Below are positions 1 to 17,983 of a DNA stretch of 64,000 nucleotides, piece by piece. Made by a program: the position numbers and the translations under genes. Within the stretch, counting starts at the first letter, position 1. Each line of letters begins with the position of its first letter. The notes beneath the pieces were generated by a model that made no database searches, was not told where the DNA came from, and saw nothing but the letters and a program-made list of their open reading frames with translations. Origin of the DNA: Dehalococcoidia bacterium (GTDB taxonomy: Bacteria > Chloroflexota > Dehalococcoidia > DSTF01 > JACRBR01); assembly GCA_035632115.1 (NCBI GenBank), contig DASQHL010000156.1:694-64693 (forward strand). The letters run 5' to 3'.

Positions 1-228
1 GAGGATGTGCTCCGCGGCAGCGCGCGCCTCGTCCGCGGATGAGGCGAACTTGATGCCGCCGGCCTTCATGCGGCCGCCTGTCAGCACCTGCGACTTCAGC
101 ACCAGCTCGCCGCCGACCTCGGCGGCGATACGCGCCGCCTCGTCGGCGGTCGTCGCCGTGCCACCCCTGGAGGCGGGGACGCCCGCCTTCGCCAGCAGCG
201 CCTTCGCCTCGAATTCGTAGAACCTCAT
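1..228 (-). CDS. Succinyl-CoA synthetase / malate-CoA ligase beta subunit-like (ATP-grasp N-terminus), 5' portion only; gene continues beyond the window start
   Basis: The minus-strand translation from the ATG at 226-228 reads MRFYEFEAKALLAKAGVPASRGGTATTADEAARIAAEVGGELVLKSQVLTGGRMKAGGIKFASSADEARAAAEHIL. This is a SucC/MtkA-like N-terminus (compare E. coli SucC MNLHEYQAKQLF...[21 protein letters not shown]). Its ATG overlaps the vapC TGA as ATGA. Confidence 0.6.
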   Translation of the reverse strand, partial: MRFYEFEAKALLAKAGVPASRGGTATTADEAARIAAEVGGELVLKSQVLTGGRMKAGGIKFASSADEARAAAEHIL

Positions 229-692
229 ACGTCGTCCTCTGGGTTGAGTACCACCAGCCCGAGCGTCACGGCCGCCTCGCGCAGCGCATGGTCCGCCACG
301 ATGAACGCGCCGGGCTGCATATTAGGCGCTCTGGGCGCTTCGAACCACACGACTGCTGTCGCAAGCTGTATCGCGTCGAGGCCCCGCAGACGCCCCGTGA
401 TGCGAGGCTCGCCAAGCATGAGGCGCACCGCCTCACGGCGCACGGTTTCCGAAAGCTCGACTACATCGAAACCGGCAACATCAGCGAGGAATCGCCGGTA
501 CAGGGCGCCGCTCTGATCGGGACTCAGATCCCCGATCACGGTGCGACGCCGGAGCGCAGAAGCAAACTCGACTGCCGTGATCGCCGAAACGCCGATATCG
601 TCGGACACGGCCAGACCGCGAGCCTGCTCCGAGCCGGCCTCCGCGACGTACAACTTGACCAGGGCGCTCGTGTCCCAGAAGTTCGCCGCCAC
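225..692 (-). CDS. vapC: PIN-domain ribonuclease, VapC-like toxin
   Basis: 155 aa. The N-terminal FWDTSALVKLYVAE places the first PIN acidic residue near position 7, as is typical of VapC. Further acidic residues lie downstream. It has a GTG start, and GC is somewhat lower than the neighbours. Confidence 0.7.
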   Translation of the reverse strand: MAANFWDTSALVKLYVAEAGSEQARGLAVSDDIGVSAITAVEFASALRRRTVIGDLSPDQSGALYRRFLADVAGFDVVELSETVRREAVRLMLGEPRITGRLRGLDAIQLATAVVWFEAPRAPNMQPGAFIVADHALREAAVTLGLVVLNPEDDV

Positions 693-695
693 CCG

Positions 696-1013
696 CTACT
701 CGTCCCGCTCGTCGCGAATTGTTTGCGAGAGAGGTGGGTTGAGCCGTGGCATCGATCGCCGCAGCGTGTCTCGATCAGGCATGTCAGGCGTGGGCCGCAG
801 GTGCTCGGGCCACTGACTGAGGTCAGGGGGCGGCGCCAGCATGTCGCCCAGCGCCTCACGGATGCGGCGGCGCTCCGCCTCCCGCGTGCTCTCCGGCGCC
901 ACAGGCACGCGCTTCTCCCGCCGGTGCAGCGCGTGCCGCAGCCCCGCCAGCAGCGACGCGGTTGAGAGCAGCGCCAGCGCGCCCGCCAGCACAAGTAGGA
1001 GTTGCTTCTTCAT
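696..1013 (-). CDS. Small hypothetical protein immediately upstream of vapC (possible antitoxin position); hydrophobic signal-peptide-like N-terminus, Arg/Glu-rich C-terminus
   Basis: Only the distal ~105 codons of the 696..1337 ORF are plausible. They run from MKKQLLLVLAGALALL to ...TIRDERDE. The stop at 696-698 lies 3 nt from the vapC start, which is the classic TA coupling geometry. No recognisable RHH, AbrB or Phd fold. Confidence 0.3.
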   Translation of the reverse strand: MKKQLLLVLAGALALLSTASLLAGLRHALHRREKRVPVAPESTREAERRRIREALGDMLAPPPDLSQWPEHLRPTPDMPDRDTLRRSMPRLNPPLSQTIRDERDE

Positions 1014-1039
1014 CACAGAGGTATCGTACCGGATCGGCT

Positions 1040-2068
1040 CTACGCCACCCGGCCCATCACTTCTAGGATGTCGTAGCCGGAGACTTCCTTCGACTTCGCA
1101 GCCATGTCGGCGAGCCATTGCGCGTCCAGCGTGCCGGCTTGCACTGCCTTCGCCAGGTCCATGAGCATGGCCTTCGTCGTCGCCTCGTCGTAGAACTCGC
1201 CGGTCTCCGGGTCGGCGATGGAGCCGCCGCCGAGGCGGTGGTACACCTCCAGGGAGCGCTTCGTTTTCGCGATCTGCTCCGCGTCCGGCGTGAACACCTC
1301 GTTCGCGATCTCCGCCTGCTGCGGGTGGATCACCCACGTGCCGTCCATGCCCAGGTCGCGCGAGCCGAGGTTCTTCTCGCGGAGCTGCTCCTTGATCGCG
1401 GCCGCCTCCTGGTCCGGCGTGCCGGGGCGGATCAGGCGCAAGAACGCGTTATCCACGGCGTGCAGCCCGGCCGCCTTCGCGGCGACGACGGTGGCCTGCT
1501 TCGCGTAGTGGAAGTTGCGGTTCTGGTGGTCGATCATCTCGCGCACGCCCATGGAGGCGCTGAAGTCGGCGATGCCGAAGATCAGCCCCGCCATGCGCGG
1601 CGATGCTGTCGCGATCTTGTACGCGTTCACGACGGCCAGCGGCGTCTCGATCAGGGCCTCGATCTGCACGTGCGTCGTCCAGCCGCCCTGCTCCTCCAGC
1701 GCGTCCAGCAGCCGCGAGAGGTGCACGATGTCTTCGGGCGTCTCGGTTTTAGGCAGGATGATGCCGTGGAACCGGTCCGGCGCGCCGAGCATGATCGCCT
1801 GGACGTCGCCGAGGAAGTACTTCGAGCGGATGTTGTTGGGGCGGATGGCGATGACCTTCGTGCCGAAGTCGATGGTGTTCAGCGCCTCCACGAGCGTGGT
1901 GCGGCTGGGCTCGCCCTTGAAGTCGTACGGGCAGGCGTCCTCGAAGTCGGGCATCACGTGGTCGACGGGCGCCTTCGCCGCGTTCTGGTTCATCTTCAGC
2001 GTGTGGCACGGGTACGTCAGCTCCGTCCGCGGGATGACGATCCGGCCCTGCTTCTGCATTACGTACAT
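1040..2068 (-). CDS. mcl: L-malyl-CoA / beta-methylmalyl-CoA lyase (CitE/HpcH aldolase family)
   Basis: 342 aa. Shows the motifs SPRMAGLIFGIADFSASMG and WVIHPQQAEIANEVFTPDAEQI. These closely match Rhodobacter Mcl1 (SPRLQAMSLGAADFAASMG, WAIHPKQVALANEVFTPSE). Confidence 0.8.
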   Translation of the reverse strand: MYVMQKQGRIVIPRTELTYPCHTLKMNQNAAKAPVDHVMPDFEDACPYDFKGEPSRTTLVEALNTIDFGTKVIAIRPNNIRSKYFLGDVQAIMLGAPDRFHGIILPKTETPEDIVHLSRLLDALEEQGGWTTHVQIEALIETPLAVVNAYKIATASPRMAGLIFGIADFSASMGVREMIDHQNRNFHYAKQATVVAAKAAGLHAVDNAFLRLIRPGTPDQEAAAIKEQLREKNLGSRDLGMDGTWVIHPQQAEIANEVFTPDAEQIAKTKRSLEVYHRLGGGSIADPETGEFYDEATTKAMLMDLAKAVQAGTLDAQWLADMAAKSKEVSGYDILEVMGRVA

Positions 2069-2111
2069 AGACTTGACTCCTGCGATACTTCCAGAGCGGT
2101 GAAGACGACAT

Positions 2112-2921
2112 TCAACCTTGCCCGAGCGGCGTTACCTTGAACGAGATCTCGTATTGCCAGAGTTCCAAACCAGGCACGGCAGAAGCCGCCATTGCCAGCG
2201 TGTCATTGCTCTCCGAAAGCACGAGCATGCCGCGAACTGACTGACCATCTCTGCATAGTTTAGTCTTCACCCATCCCATGTAGCTGAGTATTTGGCCGAT
2301 CGCCTTACGATCCGTCCCCCAGCGCTTCGTTTCGATCACGACGAAATTGCCATCGTCGTCTGTGCACAGGAAATCGATCTGCCCTACGCCCGGATCGGAG
2401 GTCAGGAACTCCCTGCCTCTTCCATTTTGATACACGCTGAGCCTCGGGAAACATGACTTCCAGTGTCGATGGAGGTAGTCCTGTAGATGAAGTTCCAGGA
2501 GCGCAACTCCGGGGACTTCTTCATCACCGGCAGACTCGGAGTCAACCCCGTCCGGCGCCGTGATCTCGCGACCACCGAACCACTCCATCAACGCGGGGTA
2601 ACTAAGGCTGTCGAGATCCTGCCTCGGATTTTGGAGGAACTGTTGCCGCTCACGTTCAGTAAGGAGTCGAAATCGTTTGCCGTGCATGGCGGGATCGTCG
2701 CAGACAAACAAAGGCCGCCTTAGGTATGGCAGGCTTGGGTCGTATTTCTTCGTTCGGTCGTTGATACAGTGGAACCTCAGTTGGTTGTTCAACGTTCCCA
2801 CGTTCGCGGTGGGTTCAGCGTCGAGCGCTTCATCGACGATCTCTCGCGCCGTGAACCACTCTCCTTCCTGACGGCCGGTCAGACGCATGGTGGAGGCACG
2901 GACTACTTCCCAATATGCCAT
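2112..2921 (-). CDS. Mrr-like restriction-type nuclease: N-terminal winged-helix-like domain plus C-terminal PD-(D/E)xK (NucS/DUF91-style) nuclease domain
   Basis: 269 aa. The C-terminal LELHLQDYL...GQIDFLCTDDDGNFVVIETKRWGTDRKAIGQILSYMGWV carries the D...E-x-K core plus a conserved Q. Local GC is visibly lower than the flanks. Confidence 0.6.
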   Translation of the reverse strand: MAYWEVVRASTMRLTGRQEGEWFTAREIVDEALDAEPTANVGTLNNQLRFHCINDRTKKYDPSLPYLRRPLFVCDDPAMHGKRFRLLTERERQQFLQNPRQDLDSLSYPALMEWFGGREITAPDGVDSESAGDEEVPGVALLELHLQDYLHRHWKSCFPRLSVYQNGRGREFLTSDPGVGQIDFLCTDDDGNFVVIETKRWGTDRKAIGQILSYMGWVKTKLCRDGQSVRGMLVLSESNDTLAMAASAVPGLELWQYEISFKVTPLGQG

Positions 2922-2982
2922 TGACCGCGCTCCCTCAACGCTCGACGTCTCCCAGGGTACAGTTCGCGGCAGGTGGAGTTCA

Positions 2983-4647
2983 TCAGCTCGCGCCCGACGT
3001 CAACGCCCGCGCGATCACTTTCAGCTCCAGCGTCGCTTTCACACCCTCGAAGATCGGCAGCACCTGCGCGTCCGCCACGTAGCGGCTGATCCGGTCCTCC
3101 TCCGCGTAGCCCCAGCCGCCGTGCAGCAGCTGCGCCTCCTGCGTCGCCCAGACCGCCACGTCGGAGGCGAAGAGCTTCGCCATCGCGGGGCCGAGGGGCG
3201 CGCGGGCTTTGGGGTCGGTGGTGCGCGCGACGTCGTAGGTGAGCTGCCGGGCGGCGGCGATGCGCGTGCCGATCAGGCCGATCTTGTACTGCGTGAGCTG
3301 GTACTCCGCAATGGGGCGCCCGAACTGCGAGCGTTGCGTCACGTACGCGCACGCCTTCTCGAGCCCGGCCTGGGCGACGCCAAGCGCCCGGCCGCCCGTC
3401 TGCAGGCGGCCGATCGCGAAGCCGCCGAGGGTCAGGTAGAAGCCGCGCCCCTGACCGCCTTCCTCGCCGACCAGGTTCTCCGCCGGCACGAAGAAATCCT
3501 CGAAGTTCAGTACGTACGAGTGCATGCCGCGATAGCCCGGCGTCGGGATCGCCTCGCCGGTGAGTACGCCGCCGCCCGGCTGGCGGTACGCGAACTTGTG
3601 GCCGTCGAAGGCGTCCTTCGGCACGATGAAGAGCGAGAGGCCGGCGTAACCCTTGCTCGCGTCGGGGTCGGTGCGGGCGAGAAGTGCCAGCACATTCGCG
3701 CGGCCGGCGAACGTACACCAGGCTTTGGCGCCGTTGATCAGCCAGCCCCGCTTGCCGCCGCGCTCGCCCGGCGACGCCTTGCACTGCACCGCCGCCACGT
3801 CCGACCCGACGTCTGGCTCTGTCACGGAGATGCCGACGAGCACCTCGCCCGAGGCGAGGCGAGGCAGCCACGCCTGCTTCTGCGCTTCTGTGCCACCCTC
3901 GAGCAGCGCGCGCGTCAGGATCTCGGAGCGCGTCAGGAGGCTGCCGGCGATCAGCGAAGCGGCGGACAACTCCTCGGTCAGCACGATCATCGTCAGGTAG
4001 CCCATCTCCGTGCCGCCGTACGCATCGGGCACGGAACTGCCGAAGAAGCCGAGCTCGGCGAACTGCTTGATCAGCGATTCCGGCACCAGCAGGTCGTCGC
4101 GGTGGATGCGGTCGGCGAGCGCAACGCCGTCCTCTTCGCGCAGCACCTCCTGCTTCGCGAACTGCCGCGCGAATGCCCGCGTCGATGCCGCGTCGTCGTT
4201 GTCGAGGTCGGTGCCGTTGACGCCGCGCGACGCGATCACGCGCTCGCCGATGCCGCGCAGCCGCGCGTCGTCGAGCCCGGCACGCACGAGCGCCGTCAGC
4301 TCTTCGTCCGGCTCCGGGACGTCAGCGAAGTCGCCGGGGTGCGCCTGTCGCAGGCCGAGGATGCGGTGCACGACCTCCGCCGCGTAGACGAAGGCCTCGT
4401 CCTCGCTCAGTGGGTCAGGGCGGCCGGCCGCCGCCAGCCGCTCCGCGTAGGCGGCCAGCGATCGCATCGCTCGCGCCTCGGTGGCAATGAGCGCCAGCCG
4501 CTCGCACAGGACCTGGTGGTCATCGATGCGGGCGCCGGCGTCCGTCAGCTCCGCGGCGCGGGCTACGGCGGCCTCGGCCAGCGCCTGCGCCTCGGCGGCG
4601 AGGCGGTGCGCCGCCAGCAGGGCCGTCGTGGTGGTCTGCGATGTCAT
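2983..4647 (-). CDS. mcd: Acyl-CoA dehydrogenase with ~170-aa N-terminal extension; putative (2S)-methylsuccinyl-CoA dehydrogenase
   Basis: 554 aa. The ACAD core starts at about residue 190 (GGTEMGYLTMIVLTEELS...). Size and N-terminal extension match Mcd of the ethylmalonyl-CoA pathway. It sits between mch and mcl. Confidence 0.65.
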   Translation of the reverse strand: MTSQTTTTALLAAHRLAAEAQALAEAAVARAAELTDAGARIDDHQVLCERLALIATEARAMRSLAAYAERLAAAGRPDPLSEDEAFVYAAEVVHRILGLRQAHPGDFADVPEPDEELTALVRAGLDDARLRGIGERVIASRGVNGTDLDNDDAASTRAFARQFAKQEVLREEDGVALADRIHRDDLLVPESLIKQFAELGFFGSSVPDAYGGTEMGYLTMIVLTEELSAASLIAGSLLTRSEILTRALLEGGTEAQKQAWLPRLASGEVLVGISVTEPDVGSDVAAVQCKASPGERGGKRGWLINGAKAWCTFAGRANVLALLARTDPDASKGYAGLSLFIVPKDAFDGHKFAYRQPGGGVLTGEAIPTPGYRGMHSYVLNFEDFFVPAENLVGEEGGQGRGFYLTLGGFAIGRLQTGGRALGVAQAGLEKACAYVTQRSQFGRPIAEYQLTQYKIGLIGTRIAAARQLTYDVARTTDPKARAPLGPAMAKLFASDVAVWATQEAQLLHGGWGYAEEDRISRYVADAQVLPIFEGVKATLELKVIARALTSGAS

Positions 4648-4747
4648 CTGAACCTTCCCCCGGAAGCGGAACCTGTCGGGCGCCCCATTCTACGGCGGCG
4701 GCGGCTTATGTTCATCCCGGTTGTGAAGCAGCAGCTCGGGGGCCGCG

Positions 4748-5812
4748 CTACCCCGCCACGGCCCGGCGCGGCAGCAGCGCCACGTAGTCCAGGTCCAGCA
4801 CGACGTCCGGGTGGTAGCGCTCGCGGCCGTCGTCGCCGGTCACGCGCAGCGCTACGTCCTCGCGCGATGGATCGACGTTCTTGACGGCGACGAGGCGGAG
4901 GCGCAGGGCGCCCACGTCCGGCCGGCCGAGGTCGATCCGTTCCAGCACGTCGGTCCAGGCGAAGAGCGTGTCGCCGGCGAACGTCGGATTGGTGTGGGAG
5001 CCGCCGTTCCAGGCGGCCATGGCCAGCAGGTTCTCCAGCCCATCGAACGACAGCGCGTGCGCCACCGAGATCACGTGGCCGCCGTAGACGATGCGCCGCC
5101 CGTGGCGCGACGCCTGCTGCTGGTACTGGTTGAAGTGGACGCGCGCGGTGTTCTGGTAGAGGCGCGTCGCCATCTGGTGCTCGGCCTCTTCCAGCGTCAT
5201 GCCCTGCGGATGCATGAGGCGCTCGCCGGGGTCGTAGTCCTCCCACACACGCGCGCCACCGGTCGCGACGCGATCGAACCGCGCGATCGCCGGGAAGACA
5301 ACGTGATCGAGCGACGCCTTCGCGGGCATCTCGGGCGCGTCGTCGGCGCGGGTCGGGACGTCCGGGTGGCGCTTGTTCACCATCACCCAGCGGTAGAACT
5401 GGAGTACGCCCTCATCGCGCTGGTTGAAGCCGACGGTGCGCACCCAGACGACGCCGGTGTCGCCCTTCGACGTCTCGCGCCAGCCGAGAGTCTCGGTCTC
5501 GGCGCGCAGCGTGTCGCCGGTGTACACCGGCCGGAGGAAGCGCACGTCGGCGTAGCCGAGGTTCCCCGGCGAGTTGAGCGAGATCTCGCCGACGGCGCGG
5601 CCGAAGACGATGTGGAAGACGAGCAGGTCGGCGACCGGCGCCCGCTCGAAGCCGAGCGCCCGCGCGTACTCGTCGGAGCAGAACAGCGGGTTGCGGTCAC
5701 CGGTGAGCGCGATGTAGAGGGCGACGTCGCCCTCGGTCAGCGTGCGCGGCACGGGGTTGCGCAGAAGCTGGCCGGGGCGCAGGTCTTCGAAGAAGTTGCC
5801 GCCGAGTTTCAA
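4748..5812 (-). CDS. mch: Mesaconyl-CoA hydratase (double hot-dog MaoC-like)
   Basis: 354 aa. Matches known Mch almost motif for motif. Examples are GNFFEDLRPGQ, PRTLTEGDVALY, ERAPVADLLVFHIVFG, TGVVWVRTVGFNQ, YRWVMVNKR, EEAEHQMATRLYQNTARVHFN, GRRIVYGGHVIS, NPTFAGDTLFAW and VLDLDYVALLPRR. It has a TTG start that overlaps the upstream gene's stop by 4 nt. Confidence 0.85.
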   Translation of the reverse strand: MKLGGNFFEDLRPGQLLRNPVPRTLTEGDVALYIALTGDRNPLFCSDEYARALGFERAPVADLLVFHIVFGRAVGEISLNSPGNLGYADVRFLRPVYTGDTLRAETETLGWRETSKGDTGVVWVRTVGFNQRDEGVLQFYRWVMVNKRHPDVPTRADDAPEMPAKASLDHVVFPAIARFDRVATGGARVWEDYDPGERLMHPQGMTLEEAEHQMATRLYQNTARVHFNQYQQQASRHGRRIVYGGHVISVAHALSFDGLENLLAMAAWNGGSHTNPTFAGDTLFAWTDVLERIDLGRPDVGALRLRLVAVKNVDPSREDVALRVTGDDGRERYHPDVVLDLDYVALLPRRAVAG

Positions 5813-7488
5813 GGCTGAATCATTTTGGTCAGGTTGAGCGGTTCGACGAGAACCTGTTGTCCCTGCGTCGACTTCCCTGTGGTGAAGATCTTGTTCCAGA
5901 AGTCGTAGTTCTGCTTCCCGCCGAAGATGGTCAGGGACAGGTTACGATTCACCCACAGAGGGAGCGTGGTCAGATTCCGCAGGTAGTTGGCGATATTCGC
6001 CCACAGTGCATCGGGGTGGCGTACCTGGAACAGAGTGGTTTCGGTGAACGGTATCCCTTGAAAGGCGTAAAAGGTCGACACGATTTGGCGAACGTACGAA
6101 AGCCAGTTATACAGGATCTCCTCCTTGGCCATACGGTACGCACGAAGGTGTGCCTCGGGTACGTCTTCACCCGCTTGCACCTTGTTCTCAATTCGGTACG
6201 TGTTCCTCTCTAAGTCGAATTGGCCCTCGAACACGATTTCAGACACCAGATTCATCAGGCGCACGATCTGAAGGCGCTCAAGTTCACGCGGGTTCTCTCC
6301 CACGTCCAACCCATATGAGAGGGGCGTGGAGAGCATATCCGTACCAATGAAGAACGAATAGAAGGTCCTATCGATCGTGCTGTAGGAGATCGGCTTGGCA
6401 TTCTTGCGGCCACCCAAGTCTATGTACTGGCGAAGGCGGTTCTCTGGATCGTGGGTAACACCGTCGCGAACCGCGTCGAGTATGTACCGTTTGATTTCCG
6501 ACGCCTCGCCGCTAAACAACTTGACCAGATCCTTCTCGGAGAATTCGAAGTCTTCAGCAGTCCGTGAAGTCTCTTGCTGGAAGCGCAGGACCCGATCGCG
6601 GTACAGCGCGCTCCCTAGGTGCCTCTGCACTGACTTGTCGAACGCAACTTGTCGAAGCTTCGTTCCAGCGTTCGTGTTCGCCTGGAGCAGCACGTCGAGG
6701 TCGGGATCTACGAAGACTCGAACTGGCAGCCAATCAACATCAAGGAGGATCTGGGCGGCGACCTTGTGTTGCCCATCAAATATTTGGACTTTCCCAGCGT
6801 CAGGCCCCTCGGTCGTTAACCAAGCCAGGGAGACGTGCAGTTGCGGCCTTCCGCGGAAGAACTCCTCCACGAGTCCTCGCAGACTTGCTCCAATGCCCCG
6901 TGGATTTATGCGTTCGTCGTGGAACAAATACGCCAGCGGTACCAGCGCGAAGAAGTAGTTCATCTTGCTCAGGCCGTCACTGTAAAGTGGCGACTCATGA
7001 ACTCGGGTGCCATCGACGCCTTTGAGCCTCGGGAAGCCGTACCGCACGCGCTCTCCATCGAACGTAGCTTGCAGCGGGAATTGCGTGTCTACTTTCGATC
7101 CAAGCACGCCGCCGAGGTTGGGTGCGTCGCGGCCGGCGTCCTGCACGGCGGACTGTAACTTAGCGAACCTAGCCATCACTCTGGCCACGCGCAGGTCGGC
7201 TGCCTGCTTGGATCGATTGCAATGAGAATGGGTCAGCCCGAAGTTGCTCGGATCGTCCCTTCCGTGGTCGGTTAATGGCTGGATATGATCCACGTCGAGC
7301 GAAGCACGTTGAATCGCGTAGTCGATCTCATCTTCGCAGATGAAGCATCGGTCCCGCTGGATAGACAACAGCTTGAGCTCGAGATCCTGACGCTCCTTGG
7401 CACTCAGCTCTGACAGGTATTTCGAGGACATAGGTTCACCACGCAAACACGGCACCTGTTGCCCAGATAGTACCAGCTTGCAGCCCAA
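5809..7488 (-). CDS. HNH endonuclease fused to a DGQHK (DndB / DUF262 ParB-like) domain protein; candidate modification-dependent restriction / defence nuclease
   Basis: 559 aa. Has a canonical N-terminal HNH motif (CFIC...DVDHIQP...DDPSNFGLTHSHCNRSK). The sequence KVQIFDGQHKVAAQ sits near residue 235, compare the DGQHR signature of DndB and DGQQR of DUF262. Local GC of ~50% is clearly lower than the flanks. Alternative start MSSKYL at 7431. Confidence 0.7.
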   Translation of the reverse strand: MGCKLVLSGQQVPCLRGEPMSSKYLSELSAKERQDLELKLLSIQRDRCFICEDEIDYAIQRASLDVDHIQPLTDHGRDDPSNFGLTHSHCNRSKQAADLRVARVMARFAKLQSAVQDAGRDAPNLGGVLGSKVDTQFPLQATFDGERVRYGFPRLKGVDGTRVHESPLYSDGLSKMNYFFALVPLAYLFHDERINPRGIGASLRGLVEEFFRGRPQLHVSLAWLTTEGPDAGKVQIFDGQHKVAAQILLDVDWLPVRVFVDPDLDVLLQANTNAGTKLRQVAFDKSVQRHLGSALYRDRVLRFQQETSRTAEDFEFSEKDLVKLFSGEASEIKRYILDAVRDGVTHDPENRLRQYIDLGGRKNAKPISYSTIDRTFYSFFIGTDMLSTPLSYGLDVGENPRELERLQIVRLMNLVSEIVFEGQFDLERNTYRIENKVQAGEDVPEAHLRAYRMAKEEILYNWLSYVRQIVSTFYAFQGIPFTETTLFQVRHPDALWANIANYLRNLTTLPLWVNRNLSLTIFGGKQNYDFWNKIFTTGKSTQGQQVLVEPLNLTKMIQP

Positions 7489-7608
7489 GTGACGCTTGCC
7501 GAAAGGACTCGTGCGACCTGTGCTGCGCGGTTCAGGTGTGACTGTCGATCCGCCAAGGGATCGCGTGACGAAATGGACGAGTTCCCCTATATTCGTCGCG
7601 CCAGAAGG

Positions 7609-9231
7609 TCACAGGGTCATCGTCTGGCGCTGTTCGCCCCAGACGGAGCGGAGGGAGCGGCAGATCTCGCCGAGGGTGACGTACTGTTCCACAGCCTCGA
7701 TGATCAGAGGGATCAGATTGTCGTCGCCGCGGGCGCCGTCCTCCAGCCGCCGCAGAGCCGCATCCACACGGCCGACATCGCGGCCGGCGCGCAGGCGCTG
7801 GAGCTGCGCTTTGCGGCGCGCGCCCACCGTCACGTCGTGCTGGTGCAGGCCGTCGGGCGGCGGCTCATCGTCGACGAACTCGTTGACGCCGACGACGATC
7901 TTGCGGTGGGCCTCGATGTCGCGCTGGATGCGGAAAGCGTTTTCGTGGATCTCCTGCGCCTGGAAGCCGCGCTCCACCGCCGCGAGGGCGCCACCCATTT
8001 CGTCGATGCGGCGCACGTAGTCGAGTGCGTCGCGCTCCACCTCGTCGGTGAGGTGCTCGATGTACCAGGAGCCGGCGACCGGGTCGATGGTGTCGCCGAC
8101 GCCGGTCTCGTAAGCGATGATCTGCTGCGTGCGCAGGGCCAGCTCGGCGGCGTGCTGGCTGGGAAGCGACAGCGCCTCGTCGTAGCTGTTGGTGTGGAGC
8201 GACTGCGTGCCGCCCAGCACGGCGGACATCGCCTGGAGGGCGGTGCGTACGAGGTTGTTGACGGGCTGCTGGGCGGTAAGCGTGGCGCCGCCGGTCTGCG
8301 TGTGAAAGCGCAGCATCATGGAGCGCGGGTCCTTCGCGCCGAAGCGCTCCTTCACCACGCGCGCCCAGATGCGGCGGGCGGCGCGGAACTTGGCGATCTC
8401 CTCGAGGAAGTTGCCGTGGCAGGCGAAGAAGAAGGCGAGCCGGGGTGCGAAGTCATCGATCTTGAGCCCGCGGTCGAGGGCCGCCTGCGTGTACTGGATG
8501 GCATCGGCGATGGTGAAGCCGACCTCCTGCGCAGCGGTGCAGCCGGCCTCGCGCATGTGGTAGCCGCTGATGCTGATGGTGTTCCACTGCGGCAGGTGCT
8601 CGTTGCACCAGGCGAAGACGTCGGTGATCAGGCGGAGGGAGGGGCGAGGCGGGAAGATGTAGGTGCCGCGGGCGATGTACTCCTTGAGGATGTCGTTCTG
8701 CGTCGTGCCGCCCACTTTGGCCAGGTCGGCGCCCTGCTTCTTCGCGACAGCGACGTACAGCGCCAGCAGCACCGCCGCGGTGGCGTTGATCGTCATCGAG
8801 GTGGTCACCGATTCCATGGGGATATCGCGGAAGAGCGTCTCCATGTCGTCGATGGAGCAGATGGAGACGCCGACCTTGCCGACTTCGCCCTCGGCCATCT
8901 CGTCGTCGGGGTCGTAGCCGATCTGCGTTGGAAGGTCGAAGGCAACGGAGATGCCGGTCTGGCCCTGGGAGAGCAAGTACTTGTAGCGGCGGTTGGACTC
9001 CTCGGCGTCGGAGAAGCCGGCGTACTGGCGCATGGTCCAGAAGCGGCCGCGGTACATCGTGGGCTGCACGCCGCGCGTGAACGGATACTCGCCGGGGAAT
9101 CCCAGTTGCTCCAGGTAGTCAAAGCCGTTGAGGTCGGCGGGAGTGTATGCCCGCTTGACGGGCTTGCCGGACGAGGTCTCGAACGGCACGTCGCGTTCGG
9201 GTGGCGGCTTGCGGTCGTTGGATTCGGCCAT
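7609..9231 (-). CDS. Methylmalonyl-CoA mutase family large (substrate-binding) subunit, no fused B12-binding domain; by context candidate ethylmalonyl-CoA mutase
   Basis: 540 aa. Shows typical MCM N-terminal domain motifs ([53 protein letters not shown]). It ends without the C-terminal cobalamin-binding domain. Confidence 0.85.
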
Positions 9232-9320: not shown

Positions 9321-9779
9321 CTACTTCACGGTGATCCGGGCGACCATGCTGGGGTGGACGACGCAGTAATACGTGTAGTCGCCCGGCTTGTCGAAGGTGA
9401 GCGTCTTGCTCTCGCCCTTGTTCAGGATGCCTGTGTCCCAGCTGCCGTCCTTCGCGGTCGCGGAGTGGGGGGCGTCGTCGTAGTTCGTCCACGTCACCTT
9501 CGCGCCGACAGGCACCTGCAGGTTCCCCGGGGCGAAGGCGAAGTTGCGGATCTCGACCTGCTGGCTGGCTGTGCCCGTCGCGAGCGGCGCACCGCTGGTG
9601 TTCGAGCCACCGCCCATCATCATGCCGTGGCTGCCCATGCCAAAGCCCATGCCCCGCCCGCCCCACATGGCGATGCTCAGCATCAGGAGCACTGACAGGA
9701 CGAGCATCACGGCCGCCGCGACGGCGACGACGATGATGGCCTGCGTCTGGGGCCGTTGGCGAGAGGTGGTGTCGTTCAT
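9321..9779 (-). CDS. Cupredoxin (type-1 blue copper protein, plastocyanin/amicyanin-like), membrane-anchored
   Basis: 152 aa. Has an N-terminal TM helix and a Gly/Met-rich linker. The cupredoxin domain carries ...DDAPHS... and YYCVVHPSMV, giving His, Cys, His and Met copper ligands. Confidence 0.8.
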   Translation of the reverse strand: MNDTTSRQRPQTQAIIVVAVAAAVMLVLSVLLMLSIAMWGGRGMGFGMGSHGMMMGGGSNTSGAPLATGTASQQVEIRNFAFAPGNLQVPVGAKVTWTNYDDAPHSATAKDGSWDTGILNKGESKTLTFDKPGDYTYYCVVHPSMVARITVK

Positions 9780-10609: not shown

Positions 10610-11395
10610 TCAGGGACCGCCGTAGGGCACGACGACCGGCGCCGGCAGCCCAGGCGCATCCAGCACCAGCACCTTCGTGCCGTAGGCGCGGGCGATGTGC
10701 GCGGCCGTCAGCACGCCTGCGGGCGGGCCATCGGCGAGGATGGCGCCGCCGGCCATGAGGGCCACACGGTCGCAGTAGAGCGAGGCGAGCACCAGCTCGT
10801 GAATCGTCACCAGCACAGCGAGGCGCTCGTCCCGCGCGAGTTCACGCAGCAGCAGGAAGACGGAGATCTGGTGGCCAATATCGAGGTTTGCCACCGGCTC
10901 ATCGAGCAGGATCAGGGGCGCCTGCTGGGCGAGGGCGCGCGCGAGCACGACGCGCTGACGCTCGCCGCCGGACAACTCGTCGACGGGACGATCGGCAAGG
11001 GCGAGGGCATCGACGCGGGCGAGGGCGTCGCGGGCGATGCGGTAGTCGTCCGCGCCCTCCTGCTGGAGGAACGAGAGGCGCGGGGTGCGGCCCATGACGG
11101 CGATGTCGAGCGCGGTGTAGCCCGACGGCAGGGCGGGGGACTGCGGCACGACGGCGACGCGGCGAGCGAGATCGCGCCGTGACAGACGCTCGACCGGGGC
11201 GCCGCCGATCACGACACGGCCGGCGTGCCACGGGATCAGCCGGGTGACGGCGCGCAACAGCGTCGTCTTACCACATCCGTTCGGGCCGACGAGGCCGACC
11301 AGCTCGCCGGCCGCCACGGTGAGATCGACGCCGTGCAAGACTGTCCGCGCACCATACGCCACGCGCAGATCGGCGACCTGGAGCATCGTCTCCAT
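10610..11395 (-). CDS. ABC transporter ATP-binding protein, FecE/BtuD iron-siderophore/cobalamin family
   Basis: Walker A GPNGCGKTTLLR, signature LSGGERQRVVLARAL and Walker B LILLDEP. Likely start METMLQV. Confidence 0.85.
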   Translation of the reverse strand: METMLQVADLRVAYGARTVLHGVDLTVAAGELVGLVGPNGCGKTTLLRAVTRLIPWHAGRVVIGGAPVERLSRRDLARRVAVVPQSPALPSGYTALDIAVMGRTPRLSFLQQEGADDYRIARDALARVDALALADRPVDELSGGERQRVVLARALAQQAPLILLDEPVANLDIGHQISVFLLLRELARDERLAVLVTIHELVLASLYCDRVALMAGGAILADGPPAGVLTAAHIARAYGTKVLVLDAPGLPAPVVVPYGGP

Positions 11396-12477
11396 CAGAA
11401 GTATGCCTTCCGCTGGCGACGCAGGAGGTAGAGGAAGAACGGGGCGCCCATGCATGCCGTGACGACGCCGACCGGCAGCTCGCCGGGACTGATCGCGGTG
11501 CGGGCGCCGAGGTCGGCAAGGATCATGAAGCTCGCGCCCAGGAGCGCCGAGAGCGGCAGGAGGCGGCGATAGTCGGGTCCAACGGCCATGCGCACGAGGT
11601 GAGGGACGATGAGGCCGACGAAGCCAACAATCCCAGCGACCGAGACGGCCGCGGCGGCGGCGAGGGAGGCGGCAACCAGCACGACCAGGCGCGTGCGCTC
11701 GACGTTCACGCCGAGCTGCTCGGCCTGGTGTTCATCGAGCTGCATGACGTTGAGCACGCGGCCGTGGAGGAAGATGACGGCGGCCGCGGGGAGGGTATAC
11801 GGCACGATGAACCAGAGCTGGTGCCAGCCGCTGTTGTTGAAGCCGCCAAGCAGCCACGACAGGATGGCGATCGTGTCACGCTGGTGCGCGAGCAAGAGGT
11901 AGGACGTGGCCGATGTGGCGAGCGACGACACCGCGACGCCAGCGAGGATCAGCGTGGTCATTGGCGCTCTGCCGCCGGAGCGCGCGATTCCGTACGTGAG
12001 GAAGACTGCAGCGAGCGCGCCGCCGAATGACGCGATGGTGATGAGGCTCACGGGCCCCCACGACGCCGGCACGGGGCCGACGATGACAATCGTGGCCGCA
12101 AGGCCGGCACCTGCGGCCACGCCGAGGAGGAACGGATCGGCGAGGGGGTTACGGAACACGCCCTGGTAGGCGGCGCCGCTGTACGCCAGCGTACAGCCGA
12201 CGAGAGCGGCCATGATGACGCGGGGGAGGCGGATCTGCCAGACGATGGTATCGGCGAGCGCGGGAGCGCCGACATCGGCTCCGAGCAGGTGGTGCAGCAG
12301 CACGCGCACAACGTCCTGGGGCGCGATGCCGGCCGGTCCGACGATCACGCCGAGCAGGATGGACAGGATCAGGAGGGCGGCGGCCACAGGGTACGCGGCT
12401 ACGTTCGCAGATGGCATGGACCAGTGCGCCGGCGCGTCGGCCGGGCGATCGCCGGTCATGGCCTCCTTCACGGTCAT
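11395..12477 (-). CDS. ABC transporter permease, FecCD/BtuC family
   Basis: 360 aa polytopic membrane protein with the typical FecCD C-terminal GAPFFLYLLRRQRK. Overlaps the ATPase and cbiA stops. Confidence 0.85.
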   Translation of the reverse strand: MTVKEAMTGDRPADAPAHWSMPSANVAAYPVAAALLILSILLGVIVGPAGIAPQDVVRVLLHHLLGADVGAPALADTIVWQIRLPRVIMAALVGCTLAYSGAAYQGVFRNPLADPFLLGVAAGAGLAATIVIVGPVPASWGPVSLITIASFGGALAAVFLTYGIARSGGRAPMTTLILAGVAVSSLATSATSYLLLAHQRDTIAILSWLLGGFNNSGWHQLWFIVPYTLPAAAVIFLHGRVLNVMQLDEHQAEQLGVNVERTRLVVLVAASLAAAAAVSVAGIVGFVGLIVPHLVRMAVGPDYRRLLPLSALLGASFMILADLGARTAISPGELPVGVVTACMGAPFFLYLLRRQRKAYF

Positions 12478-13853
12478 CGCGACCTCCGCGCTACCGGCGC
12501 CCGCGCGTCACTATCGGCGGCCGTGCGCACGAAGCGGGGCGCCAGGCGCGCGTCGGAGCAGAGGTGGATGTGGACGTAGGATGCGAAGATGGCGCCGGCC
12601 GCGTAGCCCTCGTACCGATCGGGCGCGGCGAGACGATACGCGGCGGAGGCCTCGGGTGGCGGCTCGTCCAGGGTCGACCAGTGGAACTCGTGACCACGAA
12701 CCGCTTGGCCGGGCGGGAGGAAGGGGCTGGCGCGAAGCAGCGACGCCTCACGGTACCCGAGCGTTAATCCTCCATCCATGCGTGAGTCGAGTGGCACGAC
12801 CCCGGCCATCGCATGCACGCGACCCTCGAAGTCGAGCAGGCTGCGTCCGAGGTACATGAGGCCGCCGCACTCTCCGTAGATCGGCACGCCGGCACCCGCG
12901 GCGGCGAGCAGCGAGGCGCGCATCGCTTCATTTGCGCTCAACTCATCGGCGAAGAGCTCAGGGAAGCCGCCGCCGATCCAGACGGCGCCGGCACCGGCAG
13001 GTAACACCGGGTCAGCGAGCGGGCTGAACGGGACCACCTCGGCGCCCCAGGCGCTGAGCAGGTCGAGAGCGTCCTGATAGTAGAAGCTGAACGCCCGGTC
13101 GAGGGCGACGGCGATCCGCGCGCTTGCAGGCTCAGGCACCGGCGGGAACAGCACGGGTGGTGCATCGAACCGAACCGGCGCGGCGAGGCGCAGCAATACG
13201 TCGAGATCAAGCGAGTGCTCGACGACCGCCGCGAGCCGGGCGAAGTGATCGCCGGGGACAGTGCCCTCGGTGAACGGCACGAGGCCGAGATGGCGCTCGG
13301 GCAGGCGGATCTCGGGGTCGTCGCGCAGATAGCCAAGAACCGGCAAGCCGGTGGCCTGGCGCACGGGCGGTGCCGCCATTTCGTAATGGGCGCCACCGGC
13401 GATACGGTTGAGCACGACAGCCGCGATGCGGAGATCGGGGTCCAGACGCTGGTATCCGAGCGCGACTGCGGCTGCGCTGCGCGCCATCGCAGAGCCGTCG
13501 ATCACGAGGAGCACGGGCGCGCCAAGCATCTTCGCGAGCTGGGCCGTGCTGCCGTCGTCATCGACGCCGCGGCCGTCGAACAGGCCCATCACCCCCTCAA
13601 CGATGCCGATGTCGCAGGCAGATGACCGGCGCGCGACGAGCTCCCGGATGACGTCAGCCGTGAGGAGCCACGTATCGAGGTTTCGACATGGCGTGTCTGA
13701 TGCCGCCGCGAGGTACGACGGGTCGATGTAGTCCGGGCCGGCCTTGAAGGTCTGGACGCGCAGGCCACGCCGGCGCAGGGCGGCGGCGACGCCAGCCGTC
13801 ACGGTGGTCTTGCCGACACCGCTGTGCGTCCCCGCGATGACGATCAGTTTCAT
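12474..13853 (-). CDS. cbiA: Cobyrinic acid a,c-diamide synthase (CbiA/CobB)
   Basis: N-terminal P-loop IAGTHSGVGKTTVTAG and a C-terminal glutamine amidotransferase domain (GECGGLMYLG). Confidence 0.85.
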   Translation of the reverse strand: MKLIVIAGTHSGVGKTTVTAGVAAALRRRGLRVQTFKAGPDYIDPSYLAAASDTPCRNLDTWLLTADVIRELVARRSSACDIGIVEGVMGLFDGRGVDDDGSTAQLAKMLGAPVLLVIDGSAMARSAAAVALGYQRLDPDLRIAAVVLNRIAGGAHYEMAAPPVRQATGLPVLGYLRDDPEIRLPERHLGLVPFTEGTVPGDHFARLAAVVEHSLDLDVLLRLAAPVRFDAPPVLFPPVPEPASARIAVALDRAFSFYYQDALDLLSAWGAEVVPFSPLADPVLPAGAGAVWIGGGFPELFADELSANEAMRASLLAAAGAGVPIYGECGGLMYLGRSLLDFEGRVHAMAGVVPLDSRMDGGLTLGYREASLLRASPFLPPGQAVRGHEFHWSTLDEPPPEASAAYRLAAPDRYEGYAAGAIFASYVHIHLCSDARLAPRFVRTAADSDARAPVARRSR

Positions 13854-13920
13854 CGCCGAACCCCCGTACGGACGCCGCACGCGCGCCGCCGATCACCACG
13901 CGGTCGCAGCCACGCCGCAC

Positions 13921-14862
13921 TCATCGGTACGGGATCCATTGCGAGCGCCCGTGCGGGCCGGGCGCGATGACGGCCATCGCGCCCTCGGGTGCGGGCGATC
14001 GCCAGGCATCCGGGTGCAGCGCTCGCGCGAGGATGCGCGCGCCGTCCACGATGCGGGGACCGGGGCAGGCGAAGTAGGCGCTGTCCGCAACGAACACCCG
14101 GCGAGAACCGACGGCGTCCAGCTCGCGCCAGTCCGGCAGGGTCTCCAGCAGATCCACTTCACGGAGCGTGCGCGGGACGTCAAAGCTGCAAGGCGCGACG
14201 ATGATCACCTCGGGCGCGGCGTCCACCACGGCCTGCCATTCCACGGGCACGCCGTATTCGCCCGTGCGGCCGATCACTTCCTGGCCCCCGGCGACCGCGA
14301 TCAACTCCGGAACCCAGTGACCCTCACACATCAGCGGCTCGAGCCAGCCGATGTAGAAGGCGCGTGTGCGCGGCAGCGCACCGCACGCATTGGCGACTTC
14401 GGCGAGCTGCTCCTGCATCGACGAACGCAGGTGGCGCGCCTGATCCTCGCGACCGCAGTGGTGGCCGAGTTCCTCGACGCTATCGAGGATCCCGGCCAGG
14501 GAGCCGGCGGAGACGGACACTACGGGGGCGGCGCAGAGCGCGTCGTCGGCCGCCGCGCGGGCTTCGGCGGAGCTGACGGCGCACACTTCGCAGACATCCT
14601 GCGCGATGATCAGATCCGGATGCGCCGCACGGAGGAAGTCGCGGTCGATGTGATACACGCTGCCCGCGCGGTGCAGGTCACCAGCGGCCGCATCGATCTG
14701 CGCGCTCGTCAGGTCATCCGGCAGGCGACTCGTGGATGCCGTCGGCTTCGCGCGTGCCTCCGGCGGATACGTGCAGTCGTCTGACACGCCCGCGAGGTCG
14801 TCGCCGGCGCCCAGGGCGTAGAGGATCTCGGTAGCCGCAGGCAACAGCGAAATGATCCGCAT
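13921..14862 (-). CDS. BtuF-like cobalamin/iron-siderophore binding protein without obvious signal peptide
   Basis: MRIISLLPAATEILYALGAG resembles the BtuF N-terminus. Confidence 0.65.
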   Translation of the reverse strand: MRIISLLPAATEILYALGAGDDLAGVSDDCTYPPEARAKPTASTSRLPDDLTSAQIDAAAGDLHRAGSVYHIDRDFLRAAHPDLIIAQDVCEVCAVSSAEARAAADDALCAAPVVSVSAGSLAGILDSVEELGHHCGREDQARHLRSSMQEQLAEVANACGALPRTRAFYIGWLEPLMCEGHWVPELIAVAGGQEVIGRTGEYGVPVEWQAVVDAAPEVIIVAPCSFDVPRTLREVDLLETLPDWRELDAVGSRRVFVADSAYFACPGPRIVDGARILARALHPDAWRSPAPEGAMAVIAPGPHGRSQWIPYR

Positions 14863-14909
14863 GGATTAGCCTTTCACGCCGGCGCGTGACGCGCGGACCG
14901 TCCGCGCAC

Positions 14910-15878
14910 TCACTTGAAGCGATCGGGATAGATGCACTTCCCGAGCGTCTCCAGGGCGTCAGCGATCCGCGGCCCCGGCTCGCTGACCAGCGAGGAGTTG
15001 ATGACGCAGATGCGGTGGTTCTTCACCGCGGTGATGGCGGACCAGCCGGGGCGGGCCGCGACCGAGGCGGCGGTCACGCCTGCCTCCTCATCGGCCAGCA
15101 CGATCACGTCCGGATTGCGCTGCACGATCACCTCTGACGATAGCTGCGGGTAGGCGTCGGCCGCGCCGGCGGCGATGTTCTGTGCCTTCAGGATGGTGTA
15201 GAAGTCGCCGACGAAGCTGTTGGGCGCGGCGGAATAGTATGTCGAGTCCAGCTCGTGGTAGACCTTCGGCCCGAGGGTGACGTCGCTGACGATTTTCTTG
15301 ACGCCATCGATACGCTGCTGGAGGCCACTGGCCAGCGAGGCGGCTTCGCCGGCGTGGCCAGTGATATCGCCGAAGAGGCGGATCTGGTCAAGCGTGGCGG
15401 AGAGCGAGACCGGCAGCGCCAGATACAGGACGGGTGTGCCGGCGTTACGAAGCGCCGCGACGATGCTGGCGGTGTCGCTGGACACGTACACGAGGTCCGG
15501 GTGGTAGGCGACGATCGCCTCAACGTTCGGCTGGTAGGCGTCGAGGGTGGGCTTGGTCTGGCTACCGGACGGGCAGTTCGCGTACTTCTCGACGGCGACC
15601 AACTGCGCACCCGCGCCGATTGAGCATATGATGTCGGTCGCGTTCGCGGAGAGCGAGACGATGCGCTGGGGAGCGCTGGCCAGTGTGAGCTTCTGGCCAT
15701 CGGCCTCACTCAGGGTCAGGGGAAACGTCGCGTGGGGCGTCGGACTGCTGCCAGGGGCAGGCGTCGCGGTCGGGGCACCGCCTCCGCCGCTGCCGCAGGC
15801 CATGGCGAACGCGGCCGCAAGGGCGAGCAGGATCGCCGTGAGCTTCCATTTTCCGATCGTGAACACGCGCTCCTCCAA
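14910..15878 (-). CDS. Lipoprotein ABC substrate-binding protein (BtuF/FecB family)
   Basis: Lipobox AFAMAC|GSG and the same-family motif RIVSLSANATDIICSIGAG. The TTG at 15878 or a GTG 12 nt downstream could be the start. Confidence 0.75.
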   Translation of the reverse strand: MEERVFTIGKWKLTAILLALAAAFAMACGSGGGGAPTATPAPGSSPTPHATFPLTLSEADGQKLTLASAPQRIVSLSANATDIICSIGAGAQLVAVEKYANCPSGSQTKPTLDAYQPNVEAIVAYHPDLVYVSSDTASIVAALRNAGTPVLYLALPVSLSATLDQIRLFGDITGHAGEAASLASGLQQRIDGVKKIVSDVTLGPKVYHELDSTYYSAAPNSFVGDFYTILKAQNIAAGAADAYPQLSSEVIVQRNPDVIVLADEEAGVTAASVAARPGWSAITAVKNHRICVINSSLVSEPGPRIADALETLGKCIYPDRFK

Positions 15879-17976: not shown

Positions 17977-17983
17977 GGGCGGC

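Follow-up and report, generated by a model that had tools for sequence, protein, structure and literature searches.

How do genes of nuclease and toxin type come to stand between the genes of a carbon-assimilation cluster? The question is raised by a 64,000-nt stretch of a Dehalococcoidia bacterium genome (assembly GCA_035632115.1, contig DASQHL010000156.1, positions 694 to 64,693 of the forward strand), referred to in its entirety as the window. Its first 9 kb carry a minus-strand series of acyl-coenzyme A (CoA) genes, among which lie an HNH nuclease gene, a PD-(D/E)xK nuclease gene and a cassette encoding a small protein and a PIN-domain protein. Taken in aggregate, gene order in related genomes, base composition and protein family data make it probable, though well short of certain, that accessory-gene and defence-hotspot dynamics have acted on a conserved cluster through three insertions of different age. 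The arrangement looks like one more instance of an already described pattern, the defence-gene hotspot, and not like a system of a new kind. The cluster comprises:

1-228, minus strand: 5' part of a gene for a sucC/mtkA-like ATP-grasp ligase beta subunit, continuing beyond the window start.
225-692, minus strand: PIN-domain (VapC-like) protein, 155 aa, with a Pfam PIN match.
696-1013, minus strand: small open reading frame (ORF), 105 aa, no family match.
1040-2068, minus strand: HpcH/CitE-type acyl-CoA lyase (Mcl-like), 342 aa; Pfam HpcH_HpaI, 96 bits.
2112-2921, minus strand: NucS_C/PD-(D/E)xK protein, 269 aa; Pfam NucS_C.
2983-4647, minus strand: Mcd-like acyl-CoA dehydrogenase (ACAD), 554 aa; three ACAD Pfam domains.
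4748-5812, minus strand: Mch, mesaconyl-CoA hydratase with a double hot-dog fold, 354 aa; Pfam MaoC and MC_hydratase.
5809-5812, minus strand: TTGA overlap of the HNH TGA stop and the mch TTG start.
5809-7431 (7488 if an upstream TTG is used), minus strand: HNH protein, 540 aa.
7432-7608, minus strand: spacer of 177 nt from the mutase stop to the HNH start.
7598-7630, minus strand: inverted repeat, a hairpin with 15-nt arms across the mutase stop codon, without a T-run.
7609-9231, minus strand: MM_CoA_mutase large subunit, 540 aa; Pfam MM_CoA_mutase and TIGR00641.

ORF calls and family matches reproduce the order given in an initial annotation of this DNA (mutase-HNH-mch-mcd-PD-(D/E)xK-mcl-small ORF-PIN-sucC), and both 4-nt overlaps that it listed, ATGA at 225-228 and TGA/TTG at 5809-5812, are present in the sequence. 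From the mutase side onward, the intergenic spacers measure 177 (120 with the TTG start), 100, 61, 43, 26 and 3 nt. The same annotation had each metabolic junction occupied by a foreign gene; three of the four junctions do hold genes, but the 100-nt mch-mcd junction is empty. Catalytic motifs are intact in the inserted HNH, PD-(D/E)xK and PIN genes.

Base composition was measured against the 35 other genes of the window, which have a guanine-plus-cytosine (GC) content of 0.687 +/- 0.020 and a third-position value (GC3) of 0.866 +/- 0.037. The HNH gene has a GC content of 0.560 (z -6.4), a GC3 of 0.697 and a codon adaptation index (CAI) z score of -4.6; the corresponding values for the PD-(D/E)xK gene are 0.563 (z -6.3), 0.648 and -5.5. 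These two genes are the sole strong low-GC islets across the whole 64 kb, and the proposal that two insertions lie in islets of lower GC is upheld by outliers at z scores of about -5 to -6. The PIN gene is not an outlier of the nuclease kind, being only mildly atypical (GC 0.658, z -1.5; GC3 0.756, z -2.9; CAI z -2.6). Within the window, codon adaptation peaks in the metabolic genes (CAI z +1.8 to +3), and the GC3 of the mcl-like lyase gene is 0.956.

Two genes compositionally far from their flanks, in a metagenome-assembled genome (MAG), could also have been stitched in from another organism during assembly or binning. Two Logan contigs of run SRR6788488 bear on this possibility. Contig L001 (3292 nt; here and below, L-numbers denote fetched loci or contigs) equals window positions 4821-8112 at 99.9% and spans mutase-HNH-mch, and contig L175 (999 nt) equals positions 2030-3028 at 100% and spans mcd-PD-(D/E)xK-mcl. 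As both insertions and their junctions are reproduced by independent contigs, a chimeric assembly is unlikely; the reading frames are intact, as is the 4-nt overlap, and we regard an artefact as very improbable. Exact-product look-ups with the 540-aa HNH product and with the PD-(D/E)xK protein returned one short Logan contig each, and those with Mch, Mcd and a 559-aa HNH ORF returned no match; the 540-aa HNH product that starts from the ATG at 7431 is the version on record. As a separate observation, L175 ends about 40 nt inside each flanking gene, resembling the path of an assembly-graph bubble, and the sampled population may be polymorphic for the PD-(D/E)xK insertion.

The history of each junction was traced in 80 loci from species-representative genomes, fetched via alignment of Mch homologs, nearly all from Dehalococcoidia/Chloroflexota MAGs, and compared by tblastn and ORF calling. 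The closer relatives keep the order mutase-[gap]-mch-mcd-mcl-(small ORF-PIN)-sucC-sucD at 77-98% identity. Of the contiguous mcl-mcd-mch-mutase block considered in the initial annotation, mch-mcd-mcl is conserved as a cluster, but in none of the relatives does the mutase gene adjoin mch. The gap between them measures 0.9-5 kb in 13 related genomes and is never short; its content differs in nearly every genome, and its mutase and mch flanks are 77-94% identical among relatives. Similarity between the window and these relatives breaks off precisely at two points, the stop codon of the mutase and the second base of the mch initiation codon. None of the three inserts is present in L030, the closest relative (Mcl 98% and mutase 94% identical): a Crp-like gene occupies its mutase-mch gap, about 30 nt separate mcd from mcl, and mcl abuts sucC.

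Much of the cargo directly upstream of mch in these genomes is of defence type. L033 has PifA (253 bits) and L012 has AbiGi; in L024 a GmrSD_N/NsnA-like gene stands with a partner, and in L084 DUF6941 with a PDC-M32A-like gene. Together with the HNH-ParB/Srx gene of the window, defence genes occupy the gap in 5 of 14 genomes. Cargo at this position is often low in GC3. Non-defence cargo at the same junction comprises a glyoxalase/bleomycin-resistance-like gene, an aspartyl protease, Crp and a CAP protein, and other junctions vary as well, with GNAT and TetR plus an adenylyltransferase at mch-mcd and RidA at mcl-sucC. The variable and repeatedly defence-type content of the gap makes the mutase/mch junction a hotspot for defence and accessory genes. 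Such hotspots have been described in Pseudomonas and E. coli, where they lie between core genes (PMC10250203, PMC10121019). Judged from the cargo of the sister genomes at this junction, a defence-type identity of the inserts is plausible.

The likeness to the core defence hotspots (cDHS) of P. aeruginosa (PMC10250203) and to those of E. coli (PMC10121019) lies in conserved core flanks with changing defence content. Several properties differ. The cargo here is very small, often a single gene, without integrase, transposase, tRNA or repeats, whereas cargo of the E. coli hotspots is reported to be usually carried on mobile elements (PMC10121019). It abuts the downstream core gene and overlaps its start codon by 4 nt, a second insertion lies inside the operon proper, and the lineage is one of uncultured Dehalococcoidia. 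At either nuclease of the window, no tRNA, integrase, transposase, target-site duplication or terminal repeat was found, the search giving short chance matches only.

Expression signals at the hotspot were compared next to the mch start. Among 21 related loci this start is ATG in 17, GTG in three and misregistered in one (L027); a TTG start is confined to the window and L001, which is the same organism. In about 10 of the 21 loci a -10-like TATAAC/TATACC box precedes the mch start at a distance of 6-8 nt, and other relatives have a GGAGG leader there instead:

About 6-18 nt upstream of the mch start in L008-L033 and L082 (for example L033:9975-9995): TATAAC/TATACC box, absent at window positions 5813-5840.

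The position of the box suggests that transcription of the mch operon is leaderless or near-leaderless in those relatives, in which the mutase and mch would form separate transcription units. Because the mutase is never contiguous with mch and the box precedes mch, the HNH gene would have entered a hotspot between transcription units, not the interior of an ancestral operon. In the window, mch is probably read through from the HNH gene and translated by coupling. The hairpin at 7598-7630 may serve as a terminator or attenuator. The spacer at 7432-7608 is unlike the sequences of relatives and shows neither a consensus promoter nor a consensus terminator on the minus strand; across the junctions, the scan for such elements, which is weak in this phylum, gave nothing above shuffled expectation. 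Rfam searches returned no RNA family in the spacers of the cluster.

The gene that occupies the hotspot in the window encodes three regions:

About 7204-7347, minus strand: zinc-type HNH domain.
6763-6780, minus strand: FDGQHK motif within a central ParB/Srx domain.
C-terminal part of the gene, minus strand: helical domain.

An AlphaFold model of the protein (predicted local distance difference test, pLDDT, 87) shows the N-terminal HNH domain, the central domain and a helical C-terminal third. By structure comparison the central domain resembles ParB N-domains, PadC and sulfiredoxin and the N-terminus resembles HNH domains of Cas9; no solved relative was found over the full length. Matches in Pfam, NCBIfam and PADLOC are confined to the HNH part, and the PADLOC ones are generic HNH. 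The family comprises more than 2661 database clusters (about 537 aa, 52-79% identical) in Chloroflexota, Thermodesulfobacteriota and others, and 91 representatives at 50% identity with E <= 1e-30, about 20 of them full length. Its invariant residues are CxxC, DH, N and HxxCN within the first 76 residues and FDGQHK at 218-223.

The nearest described architecture is that of the GmrSD type IV enzymes, including BrxU and SspE, which join a DUF262 ParB/Srx NTPase to a DUF1524 His-Me nuclease (PMC4619093). Both place a ParB/Srx DGQ(H/Q)(R/K) motif and a His-Me/HNH nuclease in one polypeptide, and the ParB/Srx-fold domain with a DGQQR-type motif, a GmrSD feature, is present in the HNH protein, which is also stand-alone, horizontally mobile and without a cognate methyltransferase. 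In contrast to GmrSD, the order is reversed, with the nuclease first and ParB/Srx central. The nuclease is an N-terminal canonical zinc HNH of PF01844 (CxxC...HxxC), not a C-terminal DUF1524, and a helical C-terminal domain of 300 residues is added. No match to the GmrSD_N/DUF262 (PF03235), DndB or TIGR03187 hidden Markov models was obtained at E <= 0.01. The protein is predicted to resemble a domain-swapped GmrSD, and ParB-fold/HNH fusions have been listed as novel and uncharacterised (PMC12704722).

Homologs of the HNH gene are mostly solitary amid housekeeping genes, and the gene averages 5.4 GC points below its flanks. A homologous N6_N4 methyltransferase neighbours it in 9 of 86 loci and a ResIII helicase in 6 of 86; about 90% of these loci have no recurrent partner. 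In L005:116-11626, and also in L006 and L007, an HNH homolog (65%) ends a co-oriented set of N6_N4 methyltransferase, ResIII and TnsA-like endonuclease N-domain genes, which in L005 lies inside an island with a phage-type integrase. A viral origin of the two nucleases was considered and rejected, since 2.9 million viral contigs contained one match to HNH homologs and none to PD-(D/E)xK homologs.

The closest HNH homolog (79%, L002:10001-13307) is convergent to the 3' end of an orthologous mutase (88%). In that genome mch lies on another contig (L019), and both outer flanks are unlike the window. Two HNH genes at the 3' ends of orthologous mutases, with the other flank wholly different, would be the outcome if the protein were a free-standing homing-type endonuclease that targets the mutase 3' flank and copies itself alongside. 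The mobile unit is essentially the ORF alone, there being no DNA likeness between the HNH flanks and other HNH loci outside the ORF, and the gene is solitary in most loci, as such an endonuclease would be. The orientation to the mutase is nevertheless opposite in the two genomes, which recombination-based homing does not produce. Other homologs stand beside PEPCK, thiamine pyrophosphate (TPP) enzymes, URO-D and restriction-like genes, without any neighbour that recurs; a methyltransferase and a helicase accompany the HNH gene in about 10% of loci; and typical homing endonucleases are unlike this protein, which is large and strongly conserved between phyla. Homing is, on this balance, quite improbable.

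The second nuclease gene lies within the conserved mch-mcd-mcl cluster. The mcd-mcl spacer measures 27-286 nt in 13 relatives and holds no gene in any; the PD-(D/E)xK gene is absent from all 13 of these spacers and, among the genomes compared, is seen in this one alone. By composition and distribution, the HNH and PD-(D/E)xK genes are recent foreign insertions. Separately, the mcd-mcl spacers of three relatives hold REP-like hairpin arrays (L012:5775-5837, L033:14365-14436 and L084:15723-15803), built from AGAACC(T/C)AGAACC... and inverted GGTTCTNGGTTCT repeats.

The PD-(D/E)xK protein matches NucS_C (PF01939) at 29.4 bits against a cut-off of 24, and its N-terminal DUF7669 match falls below cut-off. 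Conserved catalytic residues are D183 and E197-x-K199, within a nuclease domain encoded at about 2214-2387. In the AlphaFold model (pLDDT 89), Foldseek aligns the C-terminal 116-120 residues with 2vld (E 9e-6) and 5gke (E 1.5e-5) and matches the N-terminus to Fur-type winged helices. The C-terminal domain is NucS/EndoMS-like in sequence and fold; the protein lacks the N-terminal DNA-binding/dimerisation domain of NucS. Identification as NucS/EndoMS itself was rejected: the full-length model NF003270 scores 37.6 against a cut-off of 216, and the N-terminal domain is a different one (DUF7669 winged helix). PADLOC PDC-S02 matches at 60.6 bits over the C-terminal part only. The layout of an N-terminal winged helix and a C-terminal PD-(D/E)xK domain resembles what we take to be that of Mrr-type enzymes, and the most economical reading is that the protein would act as a stand-alone modification-dependent nuclease. 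Its homologs are solitary. In three contigs the gene stands directly after serS, the end of serS and the start of the gene sharing one coordinate, and in one contig a homolog stands among metabolic genes.

The third insert, between mcl and sucC, has a different history. The PIN protein (PF01850, 40.8 bits) retains D7, E42, D106 and D134, which are invariant in eight orthologs. The small ORF lies 3 nt upstream of the PIN gene, and the pair is kept together between mcl and sucC in seven other genomes (L009, L012, L014, L017, L024, L033 and L084); the PIN stop overlaps the sucC ATG by 4 nt (ATGA) in all eight genomes. The small protein has an N-terminal hydrophobic helix of membrane type and a conserved C-terminal PPLSQTI(R/I)(D/E)ERDE; in the product of window 696-1013 the conserved acidic C-terminal tail is PPLSQTIRDERDE. 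It has no match in Pfam, NCBIfam or PADLOC, and is a putative partner or antitoxin of the PIN protein. The cassette is preceded by a box:

1021-1035, minus strand: promoter-like box GATCCGGTACGATAC, with -10-like TACGAT at 1023-1028, 7-9 nt upstream of the small-ORF ATG.

The same box, (GAT)TCGGTACGATA(C/T), precedes the small ORF in L009, L012, L024, L033 and L084, with variants in L014 and L017. It is common to both sequence types in which the cassette occurs and is probably the cassette's own promoter. The two types are about 40% identical to each other. On the Mcl+Mch tree their distribution is patchy, genomes with RidA or with nothing at this position being mixed in among them, and the pair shows 37-62% identity against 83-98% for the flanking enzymes. 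In L084, the 120-nt spacer between mcl and the small ORF (between 16831 and 16955) contains a 36-nt relic of the sucC 5' end (ATGAGATTCTACGAGTTCGAGGCG..., MRFYEFEATAVM*) upstream of the PIN cassette, a sign that the cassette was inserted right at the beginning of sucC.

By this distribution the PIN cassette is an old insertion with turnover and not a recent one, as it occupies the same junction in seven further genomes and has its conserved box and ATGA overlap there too, which goes against the view that it had entered recently. An interleaved order shared with relatives, which the initial annotation had linked to ancestral association, is thus found in part, for the PIN cassette, but the nucleases are missing from the closest relative. 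Horizontal acquisition into a high-GC operon, as first proposed, describes the HNH and PD-(D/E)xK genes insofar as both are foreign and co-oriented; the HNH junction lies between transcription units, however, and the PIN cassette is old.

The cassette resembles VapBC in that a PIN protein with four acidic residues follows a small linked gene, in a pair that is fast-evolving and patchy. It differs in that the small partner carries a membrane helix at its N-terminus and has no DNA-binding domain that could be found (ribbon-helix-helix (RHH), AbrB, helix-turn-helix (HTH) or Phd), and in that the pair is embedded in the operon and translationally coupled to sucC in all eight genomes. This conserved position and coupling, with a partner atypical for VapB, would also suit a domesticated pair, in which the PIN protein and its partner are components of the operon; the PIN protein could, for example, be an RNase by which the polycistronic mcl-sucCD mRNA is processed or tuned. 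Such a role sits poorly with the divergence of the pair beside well-conserved enzymes, with two patchy sequence types missing from the closest relatives, with atypical codon usage that persists in all genomes and with the sucC relic that marks the cassette as an insertion. We consider domestication improbable.

The way in which the inserts engage the start signals of their neighbours raises a further explanation, operon capture or addiction, by which selfish genes persist because a needed, highly expressed operon has come to depend on them. The HNH gene would have replaced the promoter-proximal region and ATG of mch, leaving mch-mcd-mcl to be transcribed through HNH and translated by coupling; the PIN cassette would supply the sucCD promoter and coupling; and deletion of either gene would cripple carbon assimilation. 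Points in its favour are the unique TTG start of mch within the HNH stop with loss of the TATAAC box, the PIN stop/sucC ATG overlap in eight of eight genomes with a conserved -10-like box brought by the cassette, the co-orientation of every insert with the operon, and the top CAI values of the operon genes. Loss is evidently tolerated, however, given that L030 has none of the three inserts and that the cassette is scattered patchily over the Mcl+Mch tree. Hotspot cargo elsewhere stands in either orientation with the mch promoter region intact, and survivorship of non-polar insertions explains co-orientation without addiction. Capture is therefore judged unlikely. Its consequences, were it true, would be that selfish genes displace (mch ATG to TTG) or supply (PIN cassette, sucCD) promoter and start signals, such that losing the selfish gene costs the host its carbon-assimilation pathway, an addiction without toxin activity. 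The combined proposition, that small selfish nuclease and toxin genes, with or without a promoter of their own, persist through captured core-operon expression signals and that the HNH-ParB/Srx-helical protein is a new type of stand-alone immune nuclease, is a little more doubtful still.

Under the preferred reading, insertion dynamics at a hotspot, the conserved cluster of this uncultured Dehalococcoidia lineage consists of an MCM-type mutase followed by mch, mcd, an mcl-like lyase gene and a sucCD-like ligase, with gene junctions acting as insertion sites for accessory genes. Three events would be visible. In one recent event the low-GC HNH nuclease would have entered the mutase/mch junction, a variable hotspot in sister genomes, and in another the low-GC winged-helix and NucS-like PD-(D/E)xK nuclease would have entered between mcd and mcl. 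In an old event a small membrane-anchored protein and a PIN RNase, with their own -10-like box, would have been inserted at the sucC start and since kept, lost or replaced among relatives. As no cognate methyltransferase is present here, the nucleases would be modification-dependent (type IV-like) restriction or defence enzymes, presumably expressed by read-through from the highly expressed operon. Their arrival may have involved recombination in conserved flanking genes or illegitimate recombination, with no dedicated mobile element taking part. Survivorship would account for the shared orientation and the tight spacing, in that non-polar insertions alone persist in a needed operon. The patchy presence of the inserts among relatives suggests that they are dispensable, and the pathway and the inserted genes are probably functionally unlinked.

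Several observations weigh against this reading. Both low-GC genes of the 64-kb window lie within one 9-kb cluster, a coincidence of roughly 1 in 100 under neutral hotspot dynamics if junctions are equally likely. The HNH gene of L002 is again beside an orthologous mutase, in the opposite orientation, which a hotspot explains only loosely. The HNH end has replaced the region that holds the TATAAC box in relatives and has left mch with a TTG start, which is unusually intrusive. The proposed defence function of the nucleases is deduced from domain architecture and hotspot company, and the proposed co-transcription from spacing and a lack of consensus terminators.

If the hotspot reading holds, single defence-type genes enter the junctions of a core metabolic operon without a visible mobile element, in a poorly studied uncultured lineage, and the example shows how closely such inserts can become joined to expression signals of the host. 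The HNH, ParB/Srx and helical family, which is compact, widespread and uncharacterised, offers the most useful lead, as a candidate stand-alone defence enzyme. The locus also brings to attention a PIN module with a partner predicted to be membrane-anchored.

What the interrupted cluster does can be judged from its enzymes. Mcd has as its best solved relative the (2S)-methylsuccinyl-CoA dehydrogenase 8ciw (403 bits), aligns with 6es9 over residues 19-549 (273 bits) and shares an N-terminal extension of about 150 residues with the solved (2S)-methylsuccinyl-CoA dehydrogenases. Mch matches Chloroflexus 4e3e (368 bits), the beta-methylmalyl-CoA dehydratase 8hgn (330 bits) and PF19315 MC_hydratase (68.6 bits), with homologs annotated as 2-methylfumaryl-CoA hydratase. 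The Mcl-like lyase has orthologs 83-98% identical in relatives; its closest solved structures are the malyl-CoA/beta-methylmalyl-CoA lyases 5ugr (114 bits), 4l9y and 4l7z, a weak range of 99-114 bits, and it falls far under NCBIfam equivalog cut-offs. The sucC-like N-terminus matches Pfam ATP-grasp_2 (72 bits) and scores 74 bits for NCBIfam SucC versus 56 for MtkA; sucC orthologs in relatives come after mcl or the PIN cassette and are followed by sucD.

The mutase (Pfam MM_CoA_mutase 734 bits, TIGR00641 761 bits) is the large, substrate-binding subunit alone, and its nearest structures are HcmA and MCM. Aligned to 1req, 2xij and 4r3u, it has Tyr in RQYAGF (not Ile or Phe), Arg in YIARGTY (not Gln) and Ala in SVAFD (not Asp), the MCM-type carboxylate-binding signature and not that of HCM or ICM. 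With this signature and a lone large subunit, the ethylmalonyl-CoA mutase activity assigned in the initial annotation is at most putative. The five consecutive reactions of the ethylmalonyl-CoA (EMC) pathway proposed there are supported in the identities of Mcd and Mch, but the mutase and mcl assignments are unproven, and no ccr was found among the called ORFs or the Pfam-scanned subset of the window. The cluster fits the handling of methylsuccinyl-, mesaconyl- and beta-methylmalyl-CoA, for which an EMC-type segment and a branched C5-dicarboxylate route are equally suitable.

The adjacency of Mcd, Mch and an Mcl-like lyase is shared with the EMC clusters of Alphaproteobacteria (ecm, mcd, mch, mcl1) and with the mcl/mch genes of the Chloroflexus 3-hydroxypropionate bi-cycle. 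The Ecm enzymes characterised so far are generally fused proteins. In contrast, the mutase here is a split MCM-type large subunit and not of the fused Ecm type. Other departures from the EMC clusters are the lack of ccr in the window, the weak match of the lyase to characterised Mcl and the inclusion of a sucCD-like ligase, which fits branched C5-dicarboxylate use equally.

In more distant relatives (L039, L040, L041, L055, L058, L061, L070 and L078), a second weak (23%) MaoC-like match lies about 400 nt upstream of mch. It accounts for the longer Mch matches of these loci, for which an intein or insertion had been considered and was rejected. The same loci are rearranged, with mch ... sucC(-), two divergent mcl-like genes and the mutase.

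Elsewhere in the window, a cobalamin riboswitch at 16015-16170 (minus) precedes an operon at 10610-15878 (minus) that adjoins the B12-dependent mutase and encodes a lipoprotein, a periplasmic binding protein, a cobyrinic acid a,c-diamide synthase-like CobB/CobQ, a permease and an ABC ATPase. A cupredoxin gene at 9321-9779 separates the mutase from this B12-uptake/cobB operon. Further CoA-ester genes (a family III CoA-transferase, an enoyl-CoA hydratase and part of an ATP-grasp_5 acyl-CoA synthetase) and a formate-dehydrogenase-like NuoF-like/molybdopterin oxidoreductase pair are found at 51619-52803 (minus), 44980-45840 (minus), 62803-63501 (plus) and 16222-20737 (plus).

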